Below, piece after piece: positions 5,071 to 33,133 of a DNA stretch of 41,307 nucleotides; within the stretch, counting starts at the first letter, position 1, and each line of letters begins with the position of its first letter. The notes beneath the pieces were generated by a model that saw nothing but the letters and a program-made list of their open reading frames with translations, made no database searches and was not told the origin of the DNA. The stretch comes from Chiloscyllium plagiosum (taxonomy: Eukaryota), in the NCBI RefSeq assembly GCF_004010195.1, contig NC_057719.1, positions 41,348,522 to 41,389,828 on the forward strand, given 5' to 3'. Position numbers and translations under genes: made by a program.

Positions 5071-5869
5071 GTGCAGGGAAAATGTCAGGAACTGTGCAGG
5101 GCAGCTTTGTACTGACTGTGCTTACCCAAACACACAATGAGCTTTGAAAGATCGTGCAAGGAATACTTGTGAATTATGAGATAGATGCTGAGTGGTGAGT
5201 GGTTCGAGAATGACATGGGTAAGATGTGTTGGAAATTGAATGTGACAGTCGCCATAGCAACAGCGTAAGTAATTAATGAGGAGAGTTTGATAAAATAGGG
5301 CAAGAAAAGTAGTGAGGCCTTCTGGTGAAAAATTCTCTAAAAAACTAACACAACTCGGACTTAGCTATAAAAAAAAGTAAGTTTCAGTCCAGTGGTTCTA
5401 TTGCATGTGCACCCTGGACATGTTTTACTTCATTTTCTGATTCAGCTCTTTAAAATGTTATTTACTGCAGAGTTTCATGTTGTTGGCCTTTCCAAGAGAT
5501 TAACAGAACAGCCAAGCCTCCGAGATCGAAGCAGAGGGTAAACAGGTAGGAAAGTTAATTCTGCAAACAATGCCTGAGGCTTGTTGGAATTTGGGTCCAA
5601 AGACTCAGCTCCCAGTGCGATATAAGTCTTCTGTTGACTAAAGGTCTTTTTTCAATGTTTAATTACTTTGTTGTTTACTGTACCTTTAACCTCATTTATA
5701 ATGAAAACAGTGGGAGGAGACTTGTGTGGACCATAGGGACTAACATGGACTAGTTGGGACAAATGGTCTGTTTCTGTGTCAGCTAGTGAGACACACACAT
5801 CCTAAATGAGTGCTTGTTAGTAGTTACATTTTGAGGGTGAAATCATGAAAAAGAACATCCCAACAACCA

Positions 5870-6980
5870 AAGTTCCCATGGGAGACTGGTTAGCAAGGCT
5901 AGATCTCATGGAATACAGAGAGAAGTAGCCATTTGGATACAGAACTGGCTCAAAGGTAGAAGACAGAGGGTGGTGGAGGTGGGTTGCTTTTCAGATTGGA
6001 GGCCTGTGATCAGTGGAGTGCCACAAGGATCGGTGCTGGGTCCACTACTTTTCGTAATTTATATAAATGATTTGGATATGAACATAGAAGGTATAGTTAG
6101 TAAGTTGCAGATGACACCAAAATTGGAAGTGTAGTGGACAGCGAAGAAGGTTACCTCAGATCTTGGCCAGACGGGCCAATGGGCTGAGGAGTGGCAAATG
6201 GAGTTTAATTTAAATAAATGCGAGGTGTTGCATTTTAGAAAAGCAAGTCAGAGCAGGGCTCATACACTTAATGGTAAGGTCCTGGGGAGTGTTGCTGAAC
6301 AAAGAGACCTTGGAGCATAGGTTCATAGTTCCTTGAAAGTAGAGTCACAAGTAGATAGGATAGTGAAGAAGGCATTTGGTATGCTTTCCTTTACTGGTCA
6401 GAGCATTGAGTATAGAGGTTGGGAGGTCATGTTGAGGCTGTACAGGACATAGGTTAGGCCACTTTTGGAATAGTGCAATCAATTCTGGTCGCCTTCCTAT
6501 TGGAAGGATGTTGTGAAACTTGAAAGGGTTCAGAAAAGATTTACAAGGATATTGCCAGGATTGGAGTGTTTGAGTTATAGGGAGAGGCTGAATAGGTTGG
6601 GGCTGTTTTCCCTGGAGCTTCGGAGGCTGAGGGATGACCTTATAGAGGATTATAAAATCATGATGGGCAAAGATAGGATAAATAGACAAGGTATTTTCCC
6701 TGGGGTTGGGGAGAACTAGAGGGCATAGGTTTAGGGTGAGGGGAAAAGATATAAAATGGGCCTCGAGGGTGTGTGGAATGAGCTGCCAGAGGAAGTGGTG
6801 GAGGTTGGTGCAATTACAGCAATTAAAAGACATCTGGATGGGCATATGAATAGGAAGGGTTTAGAGGGATATGGGCTATGTGCTGGGAAATGGGGCTAGA
6901 TTAGGTTAGGATATCTGGTCGGCATGGACGTGTTGGACCAAAGGGTCTGTTTCTGTGCAGTATATCTCTGTGACTCTATA
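5870..6980 (+). mobile_element. CR1 (HER1-like) LINE, 5'-truncated, RT to 3' tail
   Basis: [48 protein letters not shown]; tail ctctgtgactctata; stops and frameshifts. Confidence 0.95.
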
Positions 6981-9292: not shown

Positions 9293-10250
9293 GTTAGAGA
9301 TTTAAAAAACTGCAGATACTGCATCCGTAGTAGACAAGCAGGAGGCTGAAAGAACACAGCAAGCCAGGCAGCATCAGGAGATGCAGAAGTCAATGTTTTG
9401 GTGATAACCCTTCTTCAGGACTGGGGTGTGGGGACAGGGGGAGCTGCAGATAAAGTGGGGACCTTTAGGGTTTTAGGTGGGAAGAGGGTCAGAATGGTGA
9501 GGCAGGGATAGGTGAACACAAGTGATAGGTACGACCTGGTTGGTGAATGGGAAGAATGAATTCAGTTGGTAACTGGAAGGAAGGGTCAGTAGGTGGAATG
9601 GAAGGGAGGAGGCAGGGGAGGAAAGGGAGTCATGGGATGGGTGGGAAGGGAGCCGAGGGATGGATGGGAAGGTTATTTGAAATTGGAGAACTCAATGTTG
9701 CGGAAGATAAGGTGCTATTCTTCCAATTTGCGGTCTGATTCACTGTGGCAATGGAGGAGGCCGAGGATGGACATATCAGAAAGAAATTGGGAAAGAGAAT
9801 TGAAATGGGTGGTAACTGGGAGGTCAGGCTGACCATTCCGGGCCCCATTGAGGATCTCAGTGAAACGTTCCTAAGTCTACTTTTGATCTTACTGATGTAG
9901 AGAAACCCACATCGGGAGCATCAGATACAGTAAACTAGGGTAGAGGAGAGGAACTTCTGTCTCACTGGAAGGACTGTTTGGGGCACTGGATGGAGATGAG
10001 AGGGGTGACGTGCCCACAGGTTTTGCATCTTTTACTGTTGCAGGGGAAGGTACCGGGGGTTGGGGACGTGGTGGGGAGAGTGGCATGAGCCAAGGAGTGG
10101 CAAAGGGAATGACCCCTGCAGAAGACAGAGAGGGGTGGGGAGGGGAAGATGTTCTTGTTGGTGGGGTCTAGTTGGAGTTGGCGGATGCGTTTGAGGATGA
10201 TACGGTGGATGCGGAGGCTAGTGGGGTGGAAAGTGAGAACAAGGGGTCCC
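9293..10250 (-). mobile_element. Penelope-like element 3' part (GIY-YIG endonuclease plus terminal repeat)
   Basis: Minus LVYCI*CSRCGFLYISKIKSRL resembles the GIY-YIG motif VYCI.C..C...YIGET; degenerate HHR CTGAAGAagggttatcaccAAAA; TSD tgtctaccata (9282-9292) / tgtctaccgta (10251-10261). Confidence 0.85.
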
Positions 10251-10344
10251 TGTCTACCGTAAACATCTTAAATACCAGAGCAAGGGAAGGAAAAGCCTGC
10301 CTCTAACTCCGCTGAAGGTACAGTTATAGGACAAAAAGGAATTG

Positions 10345-12489: not shown

Positions 12490-13395
12490 TTTTTTTTATT
12501 CACTCTGCCCGTCCCTAGTTGCTCTTCAGAAGGTGGTGATGAACTGTCTGCTTGAACCGTTGCAGTTCACTTGCTGTAGGTTGACCCAAAATGCCGTTCA
12601 GGAGGGAATTCCAGGAGTTTAACCCAACAACAGTGAAGGAACAGCATTATATATCCAAACAAGTATAGTGAGTGGCTTGGAGGTGAACTTGCAGGTGGTG
12701 GTGTTCCCATGTCACTGTTGCCCTTGTCCTTCTCAGTGGAAGTGGTCATGGATTTGGAAGGTGCTGTGTAAGGAGCTATAGTGCATTTCTGCAGTGCATC
12801 TTGTAGACAGTACACACTACTGCTACTGAGCAATGGTAGTGGAGTGAGTAGATGTTTGTGAATGTGGTGTCAATCAAGCAGGCTGCTTTGTCCTTGATGG
12901 TGTCAGGCTTCTTGAATGTCGTAGGAGCTGCACCCATCCACGCAAGCGAGGAGTATTCCATCATACTCCTGACTTGTGCCTTGAAGATGGTGGACAGAAT
13001 CTGGGGAGTCAGGAAGTGAGTTACATGCCACTGTATTTCTTGTCTATGACATGTTCTTGTAGCTGTTGTATTTATATGGCAAAACAAGTTGAGTTTCTGA
13101 GGAGAAAGTGAGGTCTGCAGATGCTGGAGATCAGAGCTGAAAATGTGTTGCTGGAAAAGCGTAGCAGGTCAGGCAGCATCCAGGGAACAGGAGAATCGAC
13201 GTTTCGGGCATAAGCCCTTCTTCAGGAATGTTCCTGAAGAAGGGCTTATGCCCGAAACGTCGATTCTCCTGTTCCCTGGATGCTGCCTGACCTGCTGCGC
13301 TTTTCCAGCAACACATTTTCAGCTCAAGTTGAGTTTCTGGTCAATGGTAACCCCCAGGTAGTTGATAGTGGGGGATTCAATGATGGTAACATGAA
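12490..13395 (-). mobile_element. CR1/L2-group LINE 3' fragment
   Basis: ORF 12776..13087 LSTIFKAQVRSMMEYSSLAWMGAAPTT...DKAACLI; T-run tail at 12490. Confidence 0.85.
13100..13325. mobile_element. Fold-back PLE terminal-repeat unit (family A) with HHR cores on both strands
   Basis: 95-bp arms 13134-13228 / 13231-13325 with 1 mismatch; 15-bp TSD caagttgagtttctg (13085-13099, 13325-13339); cores + 13234-13261 and - 13225-13198. Confidence 0.92.
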
Positions 13396-15320: not shown

Positions 15321-15773
15321 GCATTTATGTGTTATCCCATCTCAAAGCATTTCACGTACTTCGCATACTGTGAATTACATAAAGGGTAATAACTACATTA
15401 GAGACAAATATACAACTAATTTTCTGATCTGAAATCAAAAGCAGCAATGAATGACATGCATTTTTGAGCTTTAATAACCTCAGGATATGTTAAAGTGCTT
15501 AAACAGTCAGTGAAATACTTTGGAAATTTAATTATTGTTGTACTGAAGAAAGTACAATGAGGTTTAACTGATTTAGAGGAGTCAAGTACTGGGAGCATAG
15601 TACAAAAACTAGAACCAGATCTTTCAGGAGTGAAATTAGGTAACATTTCTGCACAAAAGTGGTGTAGACGTTTGGAACACCCTTTTACAAACAACAAGTG
15701 CTGCTAGATCAATTGTGAGATTGAGATCTGAGATGTAGTTTAAAAAAACGCTGCCAGGTTAAAATCTTTGTTC

Positions 15774-15864
15774 GAGACAAAAAGTTGCAGATGCTGGAAT
15801 CCAAGGCAGACAAGCAGGAGGGTGGAAGAAGACAGCAAGCTGGGTAGCATCAGGAGGTGGAGAA
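15774..15864 (-). mobile_element. PLE terminal-repeat fragment
   Basis: tgcagatgctggaatccaaggcagacaagcagg...gcagcatcagg-like stretch, similar to 9310-9390. Confidence 0.7.
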
Positions 15865-16435
15865 GTGGACAATGGAGAAGGTTACCTCAGAATACAACGA
15901 GATCTTGATCAGATGGGCCAGTGGGCTGAGAAGTGGCAGATGGAGTTTAGTTTAGATAAATGCAAGGCGCAGCATTTTGGAAAGACACATCAGAGCAGGA
16001 CTTGTACACTTGTCGTTAAGGTCCTGGAGAGTTTTGCTGAACAAAGAGACCTTGGAGTGCAGGTTCATAGCTCCTTGAAAGTGGAGTCGCAGGTAGATAG
16101 GATAGTGAAGGCAGTGTTTGATATGCTTTCTTTTATTGGTCAGAGTATTGAGTACAGGAGTTGGGAGGTCATGTCACGGCTTTACAGGACATTGGTTTGG
16201 CCACTTTTGGAATATTGCATGCAATTCTGGTCTCCTTCCTATCGGAAGGATGTTGTGAAACTTGAAAGGGTTCAGAAAAGATTTACAAGAATGTTGCCAG
16301 GATTGGAGGATTTGAGCTATAGGGAGTGGCTGAATAGGCTGGGGCTGTTCTCCTTGGAGCGTTGGAGGCTGAGGGGTGACCTTATAGAAGTTTACAAAGT
16401 TATGAGGGGCATGAATAGAGTAAACAGGCAAAGTC
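15865..16435 (+). mobile_element. CR1 LINE RT C-terminal fragment
   Basis: ORF 15865..: QRDLDQMGQWAEKWQMEF..KC..HFG...LEYCMQFWSP...LERVQKRFTRM. Confidence 0.95.
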
Positions 16436-17442
16436 CTATCGAAGATACAAATATCTCAGCAAGAGGCCCAGCAATCACTTCCCTAGCTTCCCACAGAGTT
16501 CTCGGGTACACCTGATCAGGTCCTGGTGATTTATCCACCTTTACCCATTTCAAGACATCCAGCACTTTCTCCTCTGTAATATGGACATTTTGCAAGATGT
16601 CTCTACAGTCTATATCTTCCATATCCTTTTCCACAGTAAATGCTGATGCAAAATCGTCATTTAGTATCTCCCCCATTTTCTGCGGCCTCACACAAAGGCC
16701 GCCTTGCTGATCTTTGAGGGGCCCTATTCTCACCCTAGTAATCCTTTTGTCCTTAATGTATTTGTAAAAACTCTTTGGATTCTCCTTAATTCTATTTGCC
16801 AAAGCTATCTCATGTCCCCTTTTTGCCCTCCTGATTTCCCTCTTAAGTATACTCTTACTTCCTTTATACTCTTCTAAGGATTCACTCGATCTATCCTGTC
16901 TGCACTTTACACGAGTTTCCCACTTTTTCTTAACCAAACCCTCAATTTCTTTAGTCATCCAGCATTCCCGATACCTACCAGTCTTTCCTTTCACCTTGAC
17001 AGGAATATACTTTCTCTGGATTCTCATTATCTCATTTCTGAAGGCTTCCTATTTTCCAGCCGTCCCTTTACCTGCGAACATCTGCCCCCAATCAGCTTTT
17101 GAAAGTTCTTGTCTAATACTGTCAAGATTAGCCTTCCTCCAATTTAGAACTTGGACTTTTAGACCTGGTCTATCCTTTTCCATCACTATTTTAAAACTAA
17201 TAGAATTATGGTCGCTGGCCCCAAAGTGCTTCCCCACTGACACCTCAGTCACCTGCCCTGCCTTATTTTCCAACAGTAGGTCAAGTTTTGCACCTTCTCT
17301 AGTAGGTACATCCACATACTGAATCAGAAAATTGTCTTGTATGCACTTAACAAATTCCTCTCCATCTCAACCCTTAACACGATGGCAGTCCCAGTCTACG
17401 TTTGGAAAGTTAAATTCCCCCCCATAACCACCCTATTATCTT
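16436..17442 (-). mobile_element. CR1 LINE endonuclease-to-RT linker fragment
   Basis: PTREGAKLDLLL...FGASDHNSISF; NPKSFYKYIK; KVDKSPGPDQVYPRTLWEAREVIAGPL. Confidence 0.95.
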
Positions 17443-19979: not shown

Positions 19980-20145
19980 TGATGAGGAGATGCTGGTGTT
20001 GGACTGGGCTAGACAAAGTTAAAAATCACACAGCACCAGGTTAGAGTCCAACAGGTTTATTAGGAAGTACTAGCTTTTGGAGTGCTGCTCCTTCGTCAGG
20101 TTACCTAACGAAGGAACAGCACTCTGGTGTTGTGTGATTTTTAAT
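19980..20145. mobile_element. Fold-back PLE-type terminal-repeat unit (family B)
   Basis: ttaaaaatcacacagcaccag ... tggtgttgtgtgatttttaa inverted ends; centre ccttcgtcaggt-t-acctaacgaagg; TSD actgttcaca (19970-19979, 20146-20155). Confidence 0.85.
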
Positions 20146-22082: not shown

Positions 22083-24537
22083 CTGACATATTTCTCAACC
22101 CATTCTCCTCTCTTTTCCCTATAACTTTGAATCCCCCCCACTAATCTAGAACCTATCCATTTCTGTCTTAGAATCACACAATGACTTAGCCTCCACAACC
22201 TTCTACACCCTCTGACTGAAGAAATTCCTCGTAAACTCAGTTCTAAACAGTTGTCCCTTCACTCTGATGCTGTGTCCTCAGTCCTAGTCTCTTCAACTAG
22301 TGGAAGCATCATCTCCATGTCTATTCTATCCAGACATATCCAGGTCTCTCAGTGGGCTCTAAGTTTCAATTAGATTCCCCCTCATCCTTCTAAACTTGAT
22401 TAAGTACACAGCGAGAGTTTTCAACCCCTCCTTATATGACAAGATCTTCATGAGTAGGATCACTCTTGAAACCTCCCCCCAACCATCTCCTCCCCTCCCT
22501 GCACCCCTCCCCCCTCCCCCCCCCCACCAACCCCCGCCAAGGACAGTACCTTTTTCCTTAAATACAGATTCCAGAACTGCTCACAATGTTTCAATCTGCT
22601 AATGAGCTCAATTGAGTGATATATTTTGGGTGGGACAATGAAAATAATTTGTCTGCTTCTTTTTGAATTATTACATAAGACCTTTTATGTCCGATGAGAT
22701 GATAGATTGGCCTTATTTAATGTCTCATTCAATAAAATGTTTACACTTCTAAAAATGTTTTGGTTACAGAACTTTGCAGTTTTTAAACTATTAGCTAAGT
22801 TGGTCTGACTGAAATGATTTTCACATTGATCTTTTACCTCTTGTCATGATGACAGATTGGAACCACAAAGTCCTTAACGCACATACTGAACTTTTTGAGA
22901 ATTCTGAAAGCTGTTTGGAGAAGAGAAACAAATGAGAAAAGTGAGGTAATTATGAAGAATATTGACAATTTCAAATGCTAGCCGGTATGATAAACAGCAC
23001 TATTCCAAAGACAATGATACTTTATTGTTCAGTAACTCAATGAAAAACAGGAAAAACAGCAACTGATGTACCCAGTGCACTGAATACACACAAACCATTT
23101 AGTGACAGGATCAGAGTTCAAGGGACACCTCCTCCCAGCAGCATTTTAAAAGCTTTTATAAATTAGCAAAAGGCCTGAAAAATGAGTGACACTGCCAACG
23201 AGGAATTCAATAGCAAGCACTTCAGCGTGATGAATGAGCATGTGACACAGCGTACAGAATCACAAGTCAGCCTTCCTCACAACAATATGCCTGTACTTTC
23301 GTGACTAGAGATTTATACAGCAACAGCGGCAAAACTGGTAATTAATGAAGCTCTTATGGCCTTTGTTAACACAACCAAGAAACACGAGGCAAAAGGGAGC
23401 CAGGGAGAGATTGAAGGGAAACTCTTTTTCAAAAAAGGATCAGGTAAGAACAATATTCCCAGGCAGTTGAGGCCATGTTGTTGATTTGATGAATATAGCT
23501 TTATCTGGAGAGATTGAGTGTCCTTCAAAAAGGAAAAAAGAAATGGCTCTGAGGCATAGCTTGAAGTATATTGGGGTAGAATTAAGATTAATGAAAAGTC
23601 CTGGGAGCATAGCTAGTGGTGTGATATGAGGAGAGTGATGAAAGCAAAACAGGAGCAGAATGCGAATTACTTGCTTTACCCATGGTCCCTTGTGGACAAC
23701 CCTAAGCTGTTGTTTTAGAAGCCAGTCATTTCATGTGGGCACTCACTAAACCCTGGGGAACCTCAATGTAGCAGAGAAAGAGAATAAAAATCACTTACTG
23801 GACCCAACATAATCTGTGATCCTCTATTTAAAAACTACAATACTGTCAAAAATGTTGATTAGTAATCTGCTAATTTCTAATTTTGAAGCATGGAGTAAAT
23901 TTGAAGGTTATTTTAAAAAATCTCAAATAGCTCAATGTTAGACTGCATGAAACAGGATTGGAAAAGTATATCATTACCTTGTAGCATATTAGCTTGTAAA
24001 TAGAAGTAAATAAAGTGTTAGAGTTTTGAAGAGATAATTTGCCAAATCTTTGGCAGACCTATCAAACGGCATTCCTGGATTTCTTAATTAGCCACGGACA
24101 TTAATCTTTCTAAGTTACAAGAAGATTATTGTAACACTTAATTAGTAAATAGTTTGGAGTTCTTGTGCATTCTTTACCCAAAATTTTCAGGAACTCCAAA
24201 CCCCCCTCAGCATCACAGTGTTCAGGATCTTAAAGTTCAAGCATGGTTTATGTATTCTGTCTTACTGACACCCAGCACAATACACTCTGTAAGTTTTGAA
24301 TGTAGACTTTCTGTTGAAATTCTTGTTTCAACATGTTTCTTCGTTTGCCTGAAGCTTCTGAGTCACTCTCAGCTATAGTTTCACAGGCTTGCTACCTAAA
24401 CAAACAAACAACGTGACAGTATTCGAAAGTAACATGAACAATAATGTGATATGCTGCTGAGATACTATGTTCTGTTCTGTGGCATTCTAATTATCAGCTA
24501 AACTGCAACATCACAATGAAACCTTGTTGAGGTTAGA

Positions 24538-24630
24538 AGTTAAAAATCACACAACACCAGGTTATAGTCCCAACAGGTTTATTTGGAAGCACGAGCTTTC
24601 GGAGCGCTGCTCCTTCATCAGGTGCTAGTG
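24538..24630 (-). mobile_element. Family B terminal-repeat unit (single arm)
   Basis: agttaaaaatcacacaacaccaggttatagtcc...ccttcatcaggtgct; same family as 19980-20145 and 37950-38070. Confidence 0.85.
24588..24626 (-). ncRNA. Minimal type I hammerhead ribozyme motif (family B)
   Basis: AGCAC CTGATGA A GGAGC agc GCTCC GAAA GC TC GTGCT: 5-bp stem I, full core, 5-bp stem II, loopless palindromic stem III (AGCT), CUC triplet. Confidence 0.85.
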
Positions 24631-25509
24631 GGGTTAAGGAGAGCTGCCATAAAGCAAACAATATCTTCCTAAGTCACTAATTCTGGTGGAAAATTCAAAA
24701 TATTTTTATGATTATTGGCCTAAAATGGTTCTTTTATTCTGAACAGGGTTTGCCTGTAGCTATTTGACTGTGTAAGGATGCATCATAGCAATGTTCAGCT
24801 TTTATATTGTAGTTATTTTGCAAGAAATTAAGAGTCTACCTTAAAATTAGTTCTGGTTAATCCTGCCATAGAGGGCTGAATCTTAGGTTTTTTTTGGTTA
24901 AGGCTGAATTGCTTTGAATTTTTTGGAGGGTTTTTTGCCAAGAGGCCTAGCAAGTTGTCACACCCACCATCTTACCGAACTCACCATGCTAACATTCCAC
25001 TAAGCTCCGATGGTGTCTCTCGTGTGATTTATACCCCATCTTACCACATGTTGTTCCCACAACATCTCACTACTCAATAGATATCCAATGAAATACTGGC
25101 ATCATTTGTATGCATATTATCTTTAAAAGACCACCATGCATCTGGGCAAGCATTGACTGTCAGCAGCATTGTCACAGCAGAGCAACAACAATCGCACTGC
25201 CCACAGCACATAGCCACATAGCTGATACGATTCATACACACAAATCCATTGTCTTACTCAAATCTCTATTTAACCACCAGGCTGCACACTTTACCTGTTC
25301 ATAGCTATCCTGCCGAACACCCTCTAAGTCAGCACTATCCTGCCCCCAATGCTCGCTAGAGACCCGTATTGTCCAGTAGGGAATTATCACATACAGTTAA
25401 GCAAGAGACAATTGCAAATAAAAATGAGTTTTTATTCAAAAAATGGAAAATGGAATAGAAATAAAGCCAATGAACTGTGCCCCCACAATGTCAACCAGAT
25501 TTCAGTGTC

Positions 25510-26759: not shown

Positions 26760-26983
26760 AGAGAAAGTGAGGGCTGCAGGTGCTGGAGATCAGAGCTGAA
26801 AATGTGTTGCTGGAAAAGCACAGCAGGTCAGGCAGTATCCAAGGAACAGGAGAATCGACGTTTCGGGCATAAGCCCTTCTTCGGGCATAAGCCCTGAAGA
26901 AGGGCTTATGCCCGAAACGTCGATTCTCCTGTTCCTTGGATGCTGCCTGACCTGCTGCGCTTTTCCAGCAACACATTTTCAGC
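26760..26983. mobile_element. Fold-back PLE terminal-repeat unit (family A)
   Basis: Arms gctgaaaatgtgttgctgg... / ...ccagcaacacattttcagc; + core CTGAAGAaGGGCttatGCCCGAAACGTC at 26894-26921; 14-bp TSD acacatctgcattg (26746-26759, 26984-26997). Confidence 0.92.
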
Positions 26984-27775
26984 ACACATCTGCATTGGAC
27001 ATGCACATGGCGCCTCAGTGTATATAGTTCACTTGTTAGTGAAACATGTTAGTGAAACACTAAATCTCACACTGCATTCCATGTAGACAACTATTAGGCT
27101 TCCATGAAAGATCAGGACTCGAACTTGTTAGCTCACACGGGAAGTGAAATGAGTAGTGGATTTACTTCAGTTGACTCTGGCCTTTTGTCTCATCATTGCT
27201 GCCAACTTATTGCTGAGGTGGCCAAGTTCAATTTGTAAGCACCAATAGCATGTAACAAATTCCTGTGACCAGTATCTCAGCCCTAAGCAGCCTCAGTCAG
27301 AATGCATGTGAAATGAACAATGCACTGAATTTAACTCTAGTGTAGCTGTGCTTTGCAAATGGCTGCTTCATCTTTTTGTTGTGACAAATTTGTGCTGTCC
27401 AGCAAATGTGGATCCTGTGCTTTTGGCCATCAAACTGACTCATCTTGGGCATTGCTTCAGACATTTTCTAGGAGCACTTCATTTCTAGAGAAGGAGAAGC
27501 GATGGCAAGGAACACAGCTTATGTTGGATATTGTCAGCACTGGGCTCCTCCTAGTCACCAGATGCATGTACCCTCCCACTCCCACAGCTAACATGTCCCC
27601 TGTTACCATACACTATTCCAACAGCCCATTTTGATCCGCTCCCCCCAGTGTAAAGAGCCACCACATTGAACTTCTCCCCATCCCCTGAGCTCTAGCATTA
27701 CACCTTACTGATGTCAATGCCCACCTTGTTCCTTATTGCTCCTTGCGGAGACCACTGTGGTGCTCACTGTCAGAT

Positions 27776-30360: not shown

Positions 30361-32662
30361 TTTTTTTTTATTTCAAAAATATACTTTATTCATAAAATTA
30401 TTTTGATATCTATACAATTGGTCATGCCATTCTTATTATATTTCTTTACATACAGAGATCGGAATTAATCATTCGTATATACAAGTCTGTACATTGACCA
30501 TCCAGATATTCTGCCGAGGCATCAGCAGGGCCCAATTTCTGAGTGGACCCCCTGTTCTTCTTAGGCAGGCAGATGTTACACGGTGGTCTTTCCCCACCAC
30601 GCCTTGGCGGCAGCTGCCCCAAGCTTCAGCGCATCCCTCAACACGTAGTCCTGGACCTTGGAATGTGCCAGTCTGCAACACTCAGTCGGGGTCAACTCCT
30701 TCAGCTGGAAGATCAGCACATTTCGGACCACCCAGAGAGCGTCCTTCACCGAGTTGATGATCCTCCAGGCACAGTTGATGTTCGTCTCGGTGTGCGTCCC
30801 GGGGAACAGGCCATAGAGCACAGAGTCCCATGTCACGGAGCTGCTCGGAACGAATCTCAACAAACACCACTGCATTCCTCTCCAGACTTCCTTTGAATAG
30901 GCACATTCCAGAAGGAGATGTGTGACAGTCTCGTCCCCCCCCGCAGCCGCTTCGAGGGCAGCGTGCAGTGCGGCAAAGAGTCCGGGCGTGCATAAAGGAT
31001 CTCACAGGCAGAGCCCTTCTCACCACCAGCCAAGCCATGTCTTGGTGCTTGTTGGAAAGTTCTGGCGATGAGGCATTCTGCCAAATGGCTTTGACAGTCT
31101 GCTCAGGGAACCACTCAACAGGATCCACCCTCTGCTTTTCCCAATGGGTCTCAAGGACACTAGGTGCTGACCACTTCCTGATGGAATTGTGGCCAAAGTT
31201 GGTTTCCTTCATAAATTTCTTCACGAAGGACAGGTAATACAGAATGGTCCAATTACTTGGAGCGTTCCATTGCAGCGGGGCCAGGCCCATCCTTTGCAAC
31301 ACCGGGGACAGGTAGAACCTCAGTACATAGTGACAGTACGTATGCATACCGGGGATCCACGTACAGCTTGATGCAGCCACACACAAAGGTGGCCATCAAG
31401 GTGAGGGTGTTTTATCCCCTCCTTGCCCAGATCTTCATACAGTGAGTCCCTTCGGACCTAGTCCATCTTTGATCTCCACATAAAGTGGAAGATGTCCCGG
31501 ATGACTGCAACGGCACAGGTTCTGGGAATAGGCCAGACCTGTGCCACATGTAACAGCAATGACAGGGCCTCACACCTGATGACCAGGTTTTTACCCGCGA
31601 TGGAGAGCGATCGTTGCTTCCATCTGCCCAGTTTCTGCCTCACTTTGCTGATACACTCCTCCCAAGACTTGGCGTACCCCCAGCCCCTCCGAACCAAATA
31701 CCCAGCACCTTCAGGTGGTCGGTCCTGACGGTGAAGAGGATCGCGGATTGGTTGGCCCAGTTCCGAAGAGCATGGCCTCGCTCTTGCCTCGGTTTACCTT
31801 GGCCCCCGAGGCCCGTTCGAATGGTCACATATGCACATGAGTCTGCGCACCGACAGCGGATCCGAGCAGAAAACAGCGACGTCATCCATGGACAGGGAGG
31901 CCTTGACCGGCAGGCCCCTGCTGCCAGGAATAGTCGCCCCTCTCAGGCTCACATCCTTCCTGATGGACTCGGCAAATGGCTCCATGGAGCACACAAACAA
32001 GGCAGGGGAGAGAGGGCAGCCCTGCCTGACTCCAGATCTGACTGGGAAGCTATCTGATTCCCACCCATTGATTGAGACTGCACTGACAATGTTGGTGTAG
32101 AGCAGTCTGATCCAATTGCAGAATCCCTCCCCAAAGCCCATTTTGGAGAGAACATCTCTCATATACCTGTGTGATATCCTGTCAAAGGCTTTCTCCTGGT
32201 CCAGGCTGATCAGGCAGATGTCCAACCCTCTGTCCTGCACGTAGGCGATCGTATCCCTGAGGAGTGCGAGACTCTCAGCGATCTTCCTGCCCGGCACAGC
32301 ACAGGATTGGTCAGGGTGAATCACTGACCCCAGAGCAGACCTGACCCGGTTGGCGATAACCTTNNNNNNNNNNNNNNNNNNNNNNNNNNNNNNNNNNNNN
32401 NNNNNNNNNNNNNNNNNNNNNNNNNNNNNNNNNNNNNNNNNNNNCTTGGTCAGCTCATCCAGAGATAGCGGCTGGTCCGGCCTCTCCCGTGTTCTGTCGT
32501 CTAAGACCTCCGTGATAGAGGACAGGAACGACTGGGAGGCCGTGCTGTCGGTTGGCTTCGAGTCATACAGACTGGCATAGAAGGATTTACTGATCCTCAT
32601 GACGTCAGCCTGAGATGACATTATTGAGCCATCTTCTTCCTTCAGGCTGCTGAGCATGGAGC
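30361..32662 (-). mobile_element. L1/Tx1-clade LINE, 5'-truncated (RT, zf-RVT, poly-A)
   Basis: ISLDQEKAFDRISH, GVRQGCPLSPALF, SMDDV, LKVLGIWFG, LGRWKQRSLSIAGKNLVI, C.RSGCGG; AATAAA (tttatt near 30385) and T-run at 30361; frameshifts. Confidence 0.93.
32364..32444. other. Assembly gap (N run)
   Basis: 81 consecutive N. Confidence 1.
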
Positions 32663-33133
32663 TGATGCCAGCATTGTAAGTAGACAGGAGCAGTTTGGCT
32701 TGAGGTCTGGCTAATTCTGGAGCACAGGTCTTCAGTTCTATTTCACTGTACTATAATATTGCCAGGAGAAATGGAACTGAACTAGAAAACAGCAGTCAAG
32801 TGTTCGATTTCATTTGCACCTCCTCAAGTAATACAGCAGCTGAAATGTGCAAATTGCCAGGCTAGGGCAATAAACAGGCTTGGACTAGTAAGGAGCAAAA
32901 AATATTTGCATCACACAAGTTCCAAACAATGAGCATTTCCAATGTGAGAGAATCTAAAAATCTCCCATTGACATTCAACATTACCTCATATCATTGAGCC
33001 TCCCATCAATGTGTAGGTTTATCATTGACCTGAAACATTACAGAATCAGTCATATGAATAATGTGGTTATCTGAGCAGCTTAGAGATTGATAATTCTATG
33101 GCAAAAGAGAAACTCACCTCTACCTCTTCAAAG

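Follow-up and report, generated by a model that had tools for sequence, protein, structure and literature searches.

A 39-nt motif on the minus strand of the DNA analysed here (the window, 41,307 nt in all) has the letters of a small hammerhead ribozyme, and it raises the questions of which element it came from, how typical it is of its family and whether this copy would still cut. The window is repeat-rich eukaryotic DNA, probably shark-like to judge by its repeats, with LINE-like reverse transcriptase (RT) pieces and pieces of Penelope-like elements (PLEs), and its hammerhead motifs fall into two families, A and B, the focal motif belonging to family B.

The focal motif has the parts of a minimal hammerhead

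The letters at 24626-24588 on the minus strand are exactly those given by the initial annotation, AGCAC-CUGAUGA-A-GGAGC-AGC-GCUCC-GAAA-GC-U-C-GUGCU, with C17 at 24593. They make up a minimal type-I hammerhead motif (24588-24626), the sole intact core among the seven family-B copies in the window. Read 5' to 3' on the minus strand, the motif starts with the stem I 5' arm AGCAC (24622-24626), which is one base longer, AGC(C/U)AC, in other family-B copies, and continues with the core C3-A9, CUGAUGA (24615-24621), and an extra unpaired A between positions 9 and 10.1 (24614), the hallmark of minimal hammerhead ribozymes (min-HHRs) according to PMC4209133. Stem II, GGAGC/GCUCC with an AGC loop (24601-24613), includes the G10.1-C11.1 pair (G24613-C24601) in both the fold and the alignment. 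It is followed by G12-A15.1, GAAA (24597-24600), in which G12 lies within a CpG and is A in 18-19% of family-B contig depth. The loopless palindromic helix III, AGCU (24594-24597), can by its sequence and by the descriptor pair only with a second AGCU copy. N17 (24593), 3' of which cleavage is predicted, is C in the focal copy and mostly A in the family contigs, and the stem I 3' arm GUGCU (24588-24592) closes the motif.

The min-HHR core CUGANGA ... GAAA-N-N-U-H, the unpaired base before 10.1 and the G10.1-C11.1 pair are thus all present, as is the palindromic 15.2-16.2 with little or no loop III (AGCU). The short helix I that closes the junction has 5 bp in the focal copy and 3 bp plus a mismatch or bulge in its sister copies. 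These defining features are all given by Cervera & de la Pena 2014 (PMC4209133). Stems I and II both appear in the minimum-energy fold of the 39-mer (-13.8 kcal/mol), the energy of which is not significant by itself (z = -1.34). A full min-HHR descriptor (core, stem II of at least 4 pairs, palindromic 15.2/16.2, H17, stem I of at least 2 pairs) matched five times in the window, four times in family A and once at the focal copy, and in 0/1500 dinucleotide shuffles.

The curated Rfam covariance models returned no hammerhead among 30 matches at E<=1 across the whole window. Outside the window, a generic hammerhead core pattern occurred at 93 loci of viral contigs, and 0/93 had both a stem II of at least 4 and a stem I of at least 3 pairs. 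The exact 26-nt family-B pattern had no match in viral contigs and none in metagenome contigs, and a family-type hammerhead pattern had none in prokaryote genomes. Long near-perfect palindromes with arms of 95-174 nt lie at 37371-37721, 26784-26994, 13134-13325 and 1459-1675, three of them being family-A inverted pairs, and they account for spurious Rfam microRNA matches.

Family-B copies carry the marks of Penelope-like insertions

BLAST inside the window recovered seven family-B pieces, the focal copy included. The similarity of the focal copy to family B is ungapped over 24624-24537 and extends to about 24632 with two small indels. By BLAST and contigs (pieces to 24631), the whole insertion (24537-24632, minus strand) is a 5'-truncated, tail-less family-B pseudo-LTR (pLTR) end of about 96 nt, starting about 11 nt upstream of C3. 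It lies between CTTAACC (24633-24639) and CTAACC (24531-24536), which are imperfect copies in the reference genome. In one organism-B contig, which lacks the base at 24636, CTAACC flanks the insertion on both sides, so the two are probably a target-site duplication. A low-copy second repeat with a depth of 120-410 lies about 250 nt upstream of the insertion, at 24875-24955.

The nearest same-strand family-B copy (19980-20101, minus strand), 4.5 kb downstream of the focal motif, has a tail, G12A and a broken stem-II pair. It is joined to an inverted, internally deleted partner with a tail-less end (20102-20144, plus strand), and a 10-nt duplication, TGTGAACAGT, surrounds the copy and its partner. 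A head-to-head family-B pair at 35851-36022 has lost its cores, has a tail at one end only and a 9-nt duplication, CATTCTAAA, and is nested in a longer copy (35768-36737, plus strand). That longer copy is tail-less, contains two nested insertions and carries a motif at 36653 with its core broken to CUGAGAA. Another longer copy (37770-38076, plus strand) has a 36-nt tail and a motif at 37957 with U4C in the core, and probably extends upstream to about 36790. The longer copies have about 0.8 kb of apparently non-coding upstream sequence. Since the same-strand neighbour carries G12A and the cores of the remaining copies, all in the other orientation, are broken or missing, the focal motif has no intact same-strand partner in the window. 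The region 35768-38076 as a whole is a PLE nest, in which two long family-B copies, head to tail, hold all inner insertions, namely the family-B head-to-head pair (CATTCTAAA) and, from family A, a piece that combines endonuclease and end (AAGACTTAACA) and an inverted pair (CTCACATTTTTAATG).

Several features of these copies are those of PLEs. Family B has two 3' end points 36 nt apart, with 3/7 pieces carrying the tail and 4/7, including the focal copy, ending before it, and 872-1101 contigs per run continue into the 36-nt tail at 24537. It corresponds to the optional tail of 30-40 bp that is described as unique to PLEs and often occurs at one end of an insertion (PMC11167929; PMC8557442). In two insertions (19980-20144 and 35851-36022) the paired copies stand head to head, one end has the tail, and the duplications measure 10 and 9 nt, respectively; 5' truncation with an adjacent inverted copy, a PLE trait, is thus present in family B. 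Moreover, numerous strand-switch joints in the contigs fall at the motif's front edge (24620-24624), and the target duplications of family-B insertions are AT-rich. The PLE origin, which the initial annotation had only inferred, is now well supported by the tail, the inverted partners, the target duplications and homologues adjoining PLE endonuclease or RT sequences.

The annotation's statement that the window holds no family-B ORF agrees with our searches, in which PLE protein queries matched only family-A pieces, at 29-37% identity. By eye, translated sequence upstream of four family-B copies had no recognisable endonuclease end. Pfam searches of the 208 N-free ORFs of at least 62 aa returned only GIY-YIG, two RVT_1 and zf-RVT matches plus two weak sub-threshold matches (NuBaID_C, PerB), and no host protein domain. 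The GIY-YIG match (E 4e-05) is to the family-A ORF at 35976-36401. This frame abuts the front edge of the family-A hammerhead at 36348 without a spacer, and other family-A copies have upstream sequence at this place; the spacer-less junction could be a template jump or a deletion at the motif edge. Among the other coding remnants of the window are a broken non-LTR retrotransposon ORF on the minus strand (30579-32750, an RT-like frame and the zf-RVT match), additional RT pieces at 5841-6131, 15763-17366 and 38973-39461, and a PLE-like ORF piece at 9965-10267 that matches the linker region of proteins P0002-P0005. An ORF piece at the window end (40988-41305) has no Pfam match, and we take it to resemble a PLE N-terminus.

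Homologous loci point to an endonuclease-bearing lineage

A metagenome scan for this type of motif found three loci (L094, L095 and L096), and 3/3 are PLE-associated. About 750 nt upstream of the motif, L096 has an endonuclease ORF that contains both a YIGET motif and a CxxxCxxC linker. It is 37% identical to the GIY-YIG ORF of the window (BLAST E 9e-11) and 49% identical to the RT-fused protein P0004; taken alone, it has no Pfam match, and it is called an endonuclease via BLAST to the window GIY-YIG ORF and P0004/P0005. P0004 has an RVT_1 domain on the same chain as the endonuclease that is 49% identical to L096, and a single ORF with RT and, at its C-terminus, GIY-YIG is therefore seen in the homologous lineage, in organisms other than the host of family B. 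L094 is the same element as L096 (99.6% over 677 nt) and contains an inverted RT piece with 49% identity to P0004. In L095, the C-terminus of an endonuclease, 79-86% identical to P0002 over two frameshifted pieces, lies about 210 nt upstream of the motif, and the locus appears chimeric outside the endonuclease-hammerhead region. The protein search gave five proteins from 137 candidates, none of them named as vertebrate. The Cx2-5CxxC linker of Neptune and Nematis is present in the L096 ORF and in P0001-P0005, while the family-B pieces of the window have no ORF. Because the homologous loci lie beside endonuclease or RT sequences, the placement of family B in the lineage of endonuclease-bearing PLEs with the Neptune/Nematis linker seems well supported by homology.

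Downstream of the hammerhead, at 24553-24574 on the minus strand, lies a pLTR motif (GUUGGACUAUAAC...), which has one extra G in the focal copy. About 21 nt of it are nearly identical in family B and in the marine-metagenome PLE L095 (934-953), with 20/21 bases matching (E 0.003 against the window with the hammerhead excluded), and a weaker similarity between the two continues through the tail. This motif is a candidate protein-binding or RT-start signal. The GGACUAU hairpin downstream of the hammerhead is weak, with a stability no better than that of shuffles (z -0.33 to 0.73).

To the alignment used for covariation, the focal copy, two sister copies and three homologues contributed five distinct rows. 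Only stem I is informative in it, because the homologue search pattern fixed most of stem II. In the alignment, 94% of cells were paired, versus 30-54% for slid controls. Three of the five stem I pairs changed on both sides (AGCAC/GUGCU, UUCAC/GUGAA, UUCUC/GAGAA), while stem II had one-sided G-U changes only and the AGCU palindrome was invariant in all five rows. The compensatory change claimed by the initial annotation therefore holds for stem I among homologues, but it had been based on comparing family A with family B, and such a comparison does not amount to covariation inside a single alignment.

We also considered whether stem I might hold a 3' splice acceptor like that of Drosophila Penelope. 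A pyrimidine run and a CAG lie just upstream of stem I in two copies of the window, but the idea was rejected, because neither L095 and L096 nor family A and the second loose-end variant have these signals.

The focal copy differs from its abundant family

Contig data came from three DNA runs, two of organism A and one of organism B, in which 28,231 and 28,599 (organism A) and 27,556 (organism B) contigs matched the stretch. The summed depth, which is not a copy number, was 3.0-4.4 million at 24551-24577 versus about 5-32 on the unique flanks. Family B is a very abundant repeat; read naively, the depth would put its copies on the order of 10^5, although depth itself gives no copy number.

In shares of family-B depth, which are contig-weighted and not counts of copies, position 17 in the three runs is A at 83.9, 93.6 and 85.4%, U at 11.5, 2.7 and 10.1%, and C or G together at no more than 4.7%. 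All five other window copies that retain position 17 also have A. The stem I 5' arm of family B is AGC(C/U)AC or AACCAC, so that three pairs are followed by a mismatch or bulge; in a comparison with the other window copies and the main loose-end consensuses, the focal copy alone has five unbroken pairs in stem I. The complete fold emphasised by the initial annotation is thus not typical, with C17 below 5% of family-B depth and the stem I of the family shorter or bulged. Likewise, in place of the expected cut after C, family B would be predicted to cut after A (CUA). Most simply, C17 and the unbroken stem I are rare variants, probably changes that arose in the focal copy amid many decaying copies. 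The genomic copy that looks best does not represent the consensus of its family, and an assay of the focal copy would probe a rare variant.

Decay is evident at the CpG formed by C11.1 and G12, which is changed on both strands: 17.6-19.3% of depth has G12A and 23.4-28.4% has C11.1U. Through G12A the hammerhead loses its general base. That this change is nearly as common as the tolerated C11.1U is expected under unselected CpG decay and fits inserted copies that are not selected for cleavage. At another CpG, 24605/24606, no change is listed at 8% or more of the family contigs, while CpG 24600-24601 is changed in about 41-48%; this is at odds with simple neutral decay.

Organism-B contigs stop within the repeat at both focal junctions, and no skip joint was seen. 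The focal insertion is probably shared with organism B, on the basis of contigs that reach only 25-28 nt into the repeat, which is less than the 31-nt bridging rule and leaves N17 uncovered. In addition, 2, 9 and 2 contigs per run contain tandem joints (24537-24624), in which the 3' end without a tail connects to the motif's front edge. Short head-to-tail family-B tandems occur elsewhere in these genomes, and they would be natural dimer substrates.

Proposed mechanism and alternative explanations

We interpret the motif as a min-HHR within the pLTR of an endonuclease-bearing, Neptune-type PLE. The element RT and GIY-YIG endonuclease would have inserted a 5'-truncated, tail-less cDNA of about 96 nt at an AT-rich site, an enzymology modelled on the Poseidon element PAc of Anolis carolinensis. 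In a parent tandem transcript, two motifs would share helix III via the self-complementary AGCU, or an element protein would fold them, and the cut would fall 3' of N17 (A in family B), as in published min-HHRs. The focal copy has been left without an intact partner nearby and is therefore most likely an inert leftover. This reading as a whole, including C17 and the unbroken stem I as rare variants, is in our judgement very probably correct.

Energy models are in line with weak activity. The AGCU self-duplex was calculated at -4.5 kcal/mol and AGCU with the family-A palindrome ACGU at -0.3 kcal/mol, suggesting that helix III would require two motifs pairing by their AGCU. The modelled active dimer (-25.9) compares with 2 x -13.8 for two monomers and -34.9 for an inactive duplex. 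Such a weak dimer agrees with the low activity of min-HHRs as dimers and its absence as monomers (PMC4209133), and with the protein-assisted cleavage of PAc. A further idea, which we hold to be rather unlikely, is that the helix-III palindrome is a self-recognition code allowing own-kind dimers only, and that the hammerhead and the GGACUAU-containing motif, which family B shares with a distant marine PLE, form one conserved cis-module for RNA recognition by the element protein, with solo copies acting in trans as partners or decoys. If so, RNA of family A or B would be cut only when its own transcripts meet. Two very abundant families with incompatible helix-III palindromes are in any case convenient material for testing dimer specificity.

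Other explanations concern either the origin of the motif or what it does. A chance match would be compatible with the unremarkable folding energy (z -1.34) and with the lack of an Rfam hammerhead match, but it is refuted by the family contigs, the PLE-associated metagenome homologues and the 0/1500 shuffles, and among the 93 viral loci that share its core letters there was none with the two stems; we regard it as practically excluded by a motif that sits within a repeat family and in PLE homologues. Family B might instead be a non-autonomous, SINE-like or retrozyme-like element with a PLE-derived end, moved in trans and with no ORF of its own left in the genome. The window has no family-B ORF, the longer copies have about 0.8 kb of apparently non-coding upstream sequence, a small number of contigs hold tandem units (2, 9 and 2 in the respective runs), and retrozymes are argued to stem from PLE pLTRs (bioRxiv 10.64898/2026.07.22.740005), all of which would suit such an element. 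Its copies, however, have variable starts and two fixed ends as in 5'-truncated PLE insertions, its homologues lie directly behind an endonuclease gene, and the focal copy is solo and not part of a tandem array, so that this origin seems quite improbable to us. The focal copy could also have been improved by mutation (a CUC site and a perfect stem I), and the host could have retained it as an active ribozyme that cleaves in cis or in trans. It is the sole intact copy of seven in the window, its two rare variants help the fold (stem I forms with a probability of 0.23-0.64, as against 0.00 for two sister copies), and organism B seems to carry the insertion as well. Yet the organism-B contigs, reaching 25-28 nt into the repeat and short of the 31-nt bridging rule, do not cover N17, and among many copies some would be intact by chance. 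Helix III is loopless, and a published min-HHR of such a type had no monomer cleavage (PMC4209133); in the models, two monomers (2 x -13.8) and the inactive duplex (-34.9) both come out more stable than the active dimer (-25.9), and the 208 ORFs of at least 62 aa contain no host protein domain. Retention by the host is thus highly improbable.

The motif may also be a relic with a structural or protein-binding role and no cleavage at all in vivo, which is kept for RNA folding or RT recognition, or merely rides along. This concerns function and is compatible with a PLE origin, and we consider it possible, though clearly the less expected outcome. For the anole PLE it is reported that mutating the hammerhead leaves in vitro insertion unaffected and that none of the RNA-seq reads terminate at the cleavage site (PMC11167929). 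Genomic copies of family B span the cut site, which implies templates that were uncut or re-ligated, and the family-B site is CUA as compared with GUC, reported as the most effective (PMC2238771). On the other side, the catalytic-core bases are all kept in family B and in distant homologues while stem I changes compensatorily, and the anole motif does cleave with protein help (PMC11167929). The role of PLE hammerheads may accordingly be to cut tandem precursors, they may need a protein, or they may ride along.

Comparison with known systems

Within the window, family A has the same core architecture as family B and follows a GIY-YIG ORF. It differs in stem II (GGGC/GCCC), helix III (ACGU, which cannot pair with AGCU), C17 and an unrelated downstream sequence. 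The initial annotation's view that every helix differs between the two families is correct for the sequence as such, but both have the G10.1-C11.1 pair and close stem I with the same C-G pair.

Poseidon PAc of Anolis carolinensis resembles family B in having a hammerhead in its pLTR, an optional 30-40 bp tail, which is attributed to two RT start sites, and AT-rich targets (PMC11167929). It belongs to a different clade, as the family-B homologues have the Cx2-5CxxC linker of Neptune and Nematis. Moreover, the PAc ORF begins at stem II, whereas the AUG in the family-B core reaches a stop after 8 codons in A17 copies. The non-LTR retrozymes (Li 2026, bioRxiv 10.64898/2026.07.22.740005), also reported from one chondrichthyan genome, are likewise non-coding, hammerhead-bearing repeats related to PLE pLTRs and are argued to derive from them. 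They are defined by tandem units (at least two consecutive), each with a hammerhead, whereas the focal family-B copy is a solo 96-nt piece with no intact family-B neighbour in the window.

The closest match is with the min-HHRs of Cervera & de la Pena (PMC4209133), which share the CUGANGA-H core, the extra base before stem II, the G10.1-C11.1 pair, the loopless palindromic helix III and the short stem I, and which also occur as many solo copies of truncated PLEs with several families per genome. In Fig. S3 of that work, a PLE motif from the shrimp Marsupenaeus japonicus has A17 and the same stem I, AGCAC/GUGCU, as the focal copy, and there are motifs with an AGCU helix III from Schistosoma mansoni(1) and Adineta vaga(2) (C17) and from Philodina and Chrysemys (U17). 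Hence several min-HHR families in one genome, the AGCU palindrome and the same stem I are already in print. Among the 56 motifs of that figure none is from a cartilaginous fish, and the word 'shark' is absent from the searched text of the supplement. The family-B sequence is not listed there, and its abundance seems far above the thousands reported in that work, this being judged by contig depth and not by copy number. Family B may therefore be undescribed, although its kind was described in 2014 and the supplements of Li 2026, where one chondrichthyan genome was screened, may list it. It is one more family in the class described in 2014, represented at the focal site by an atypical copy.
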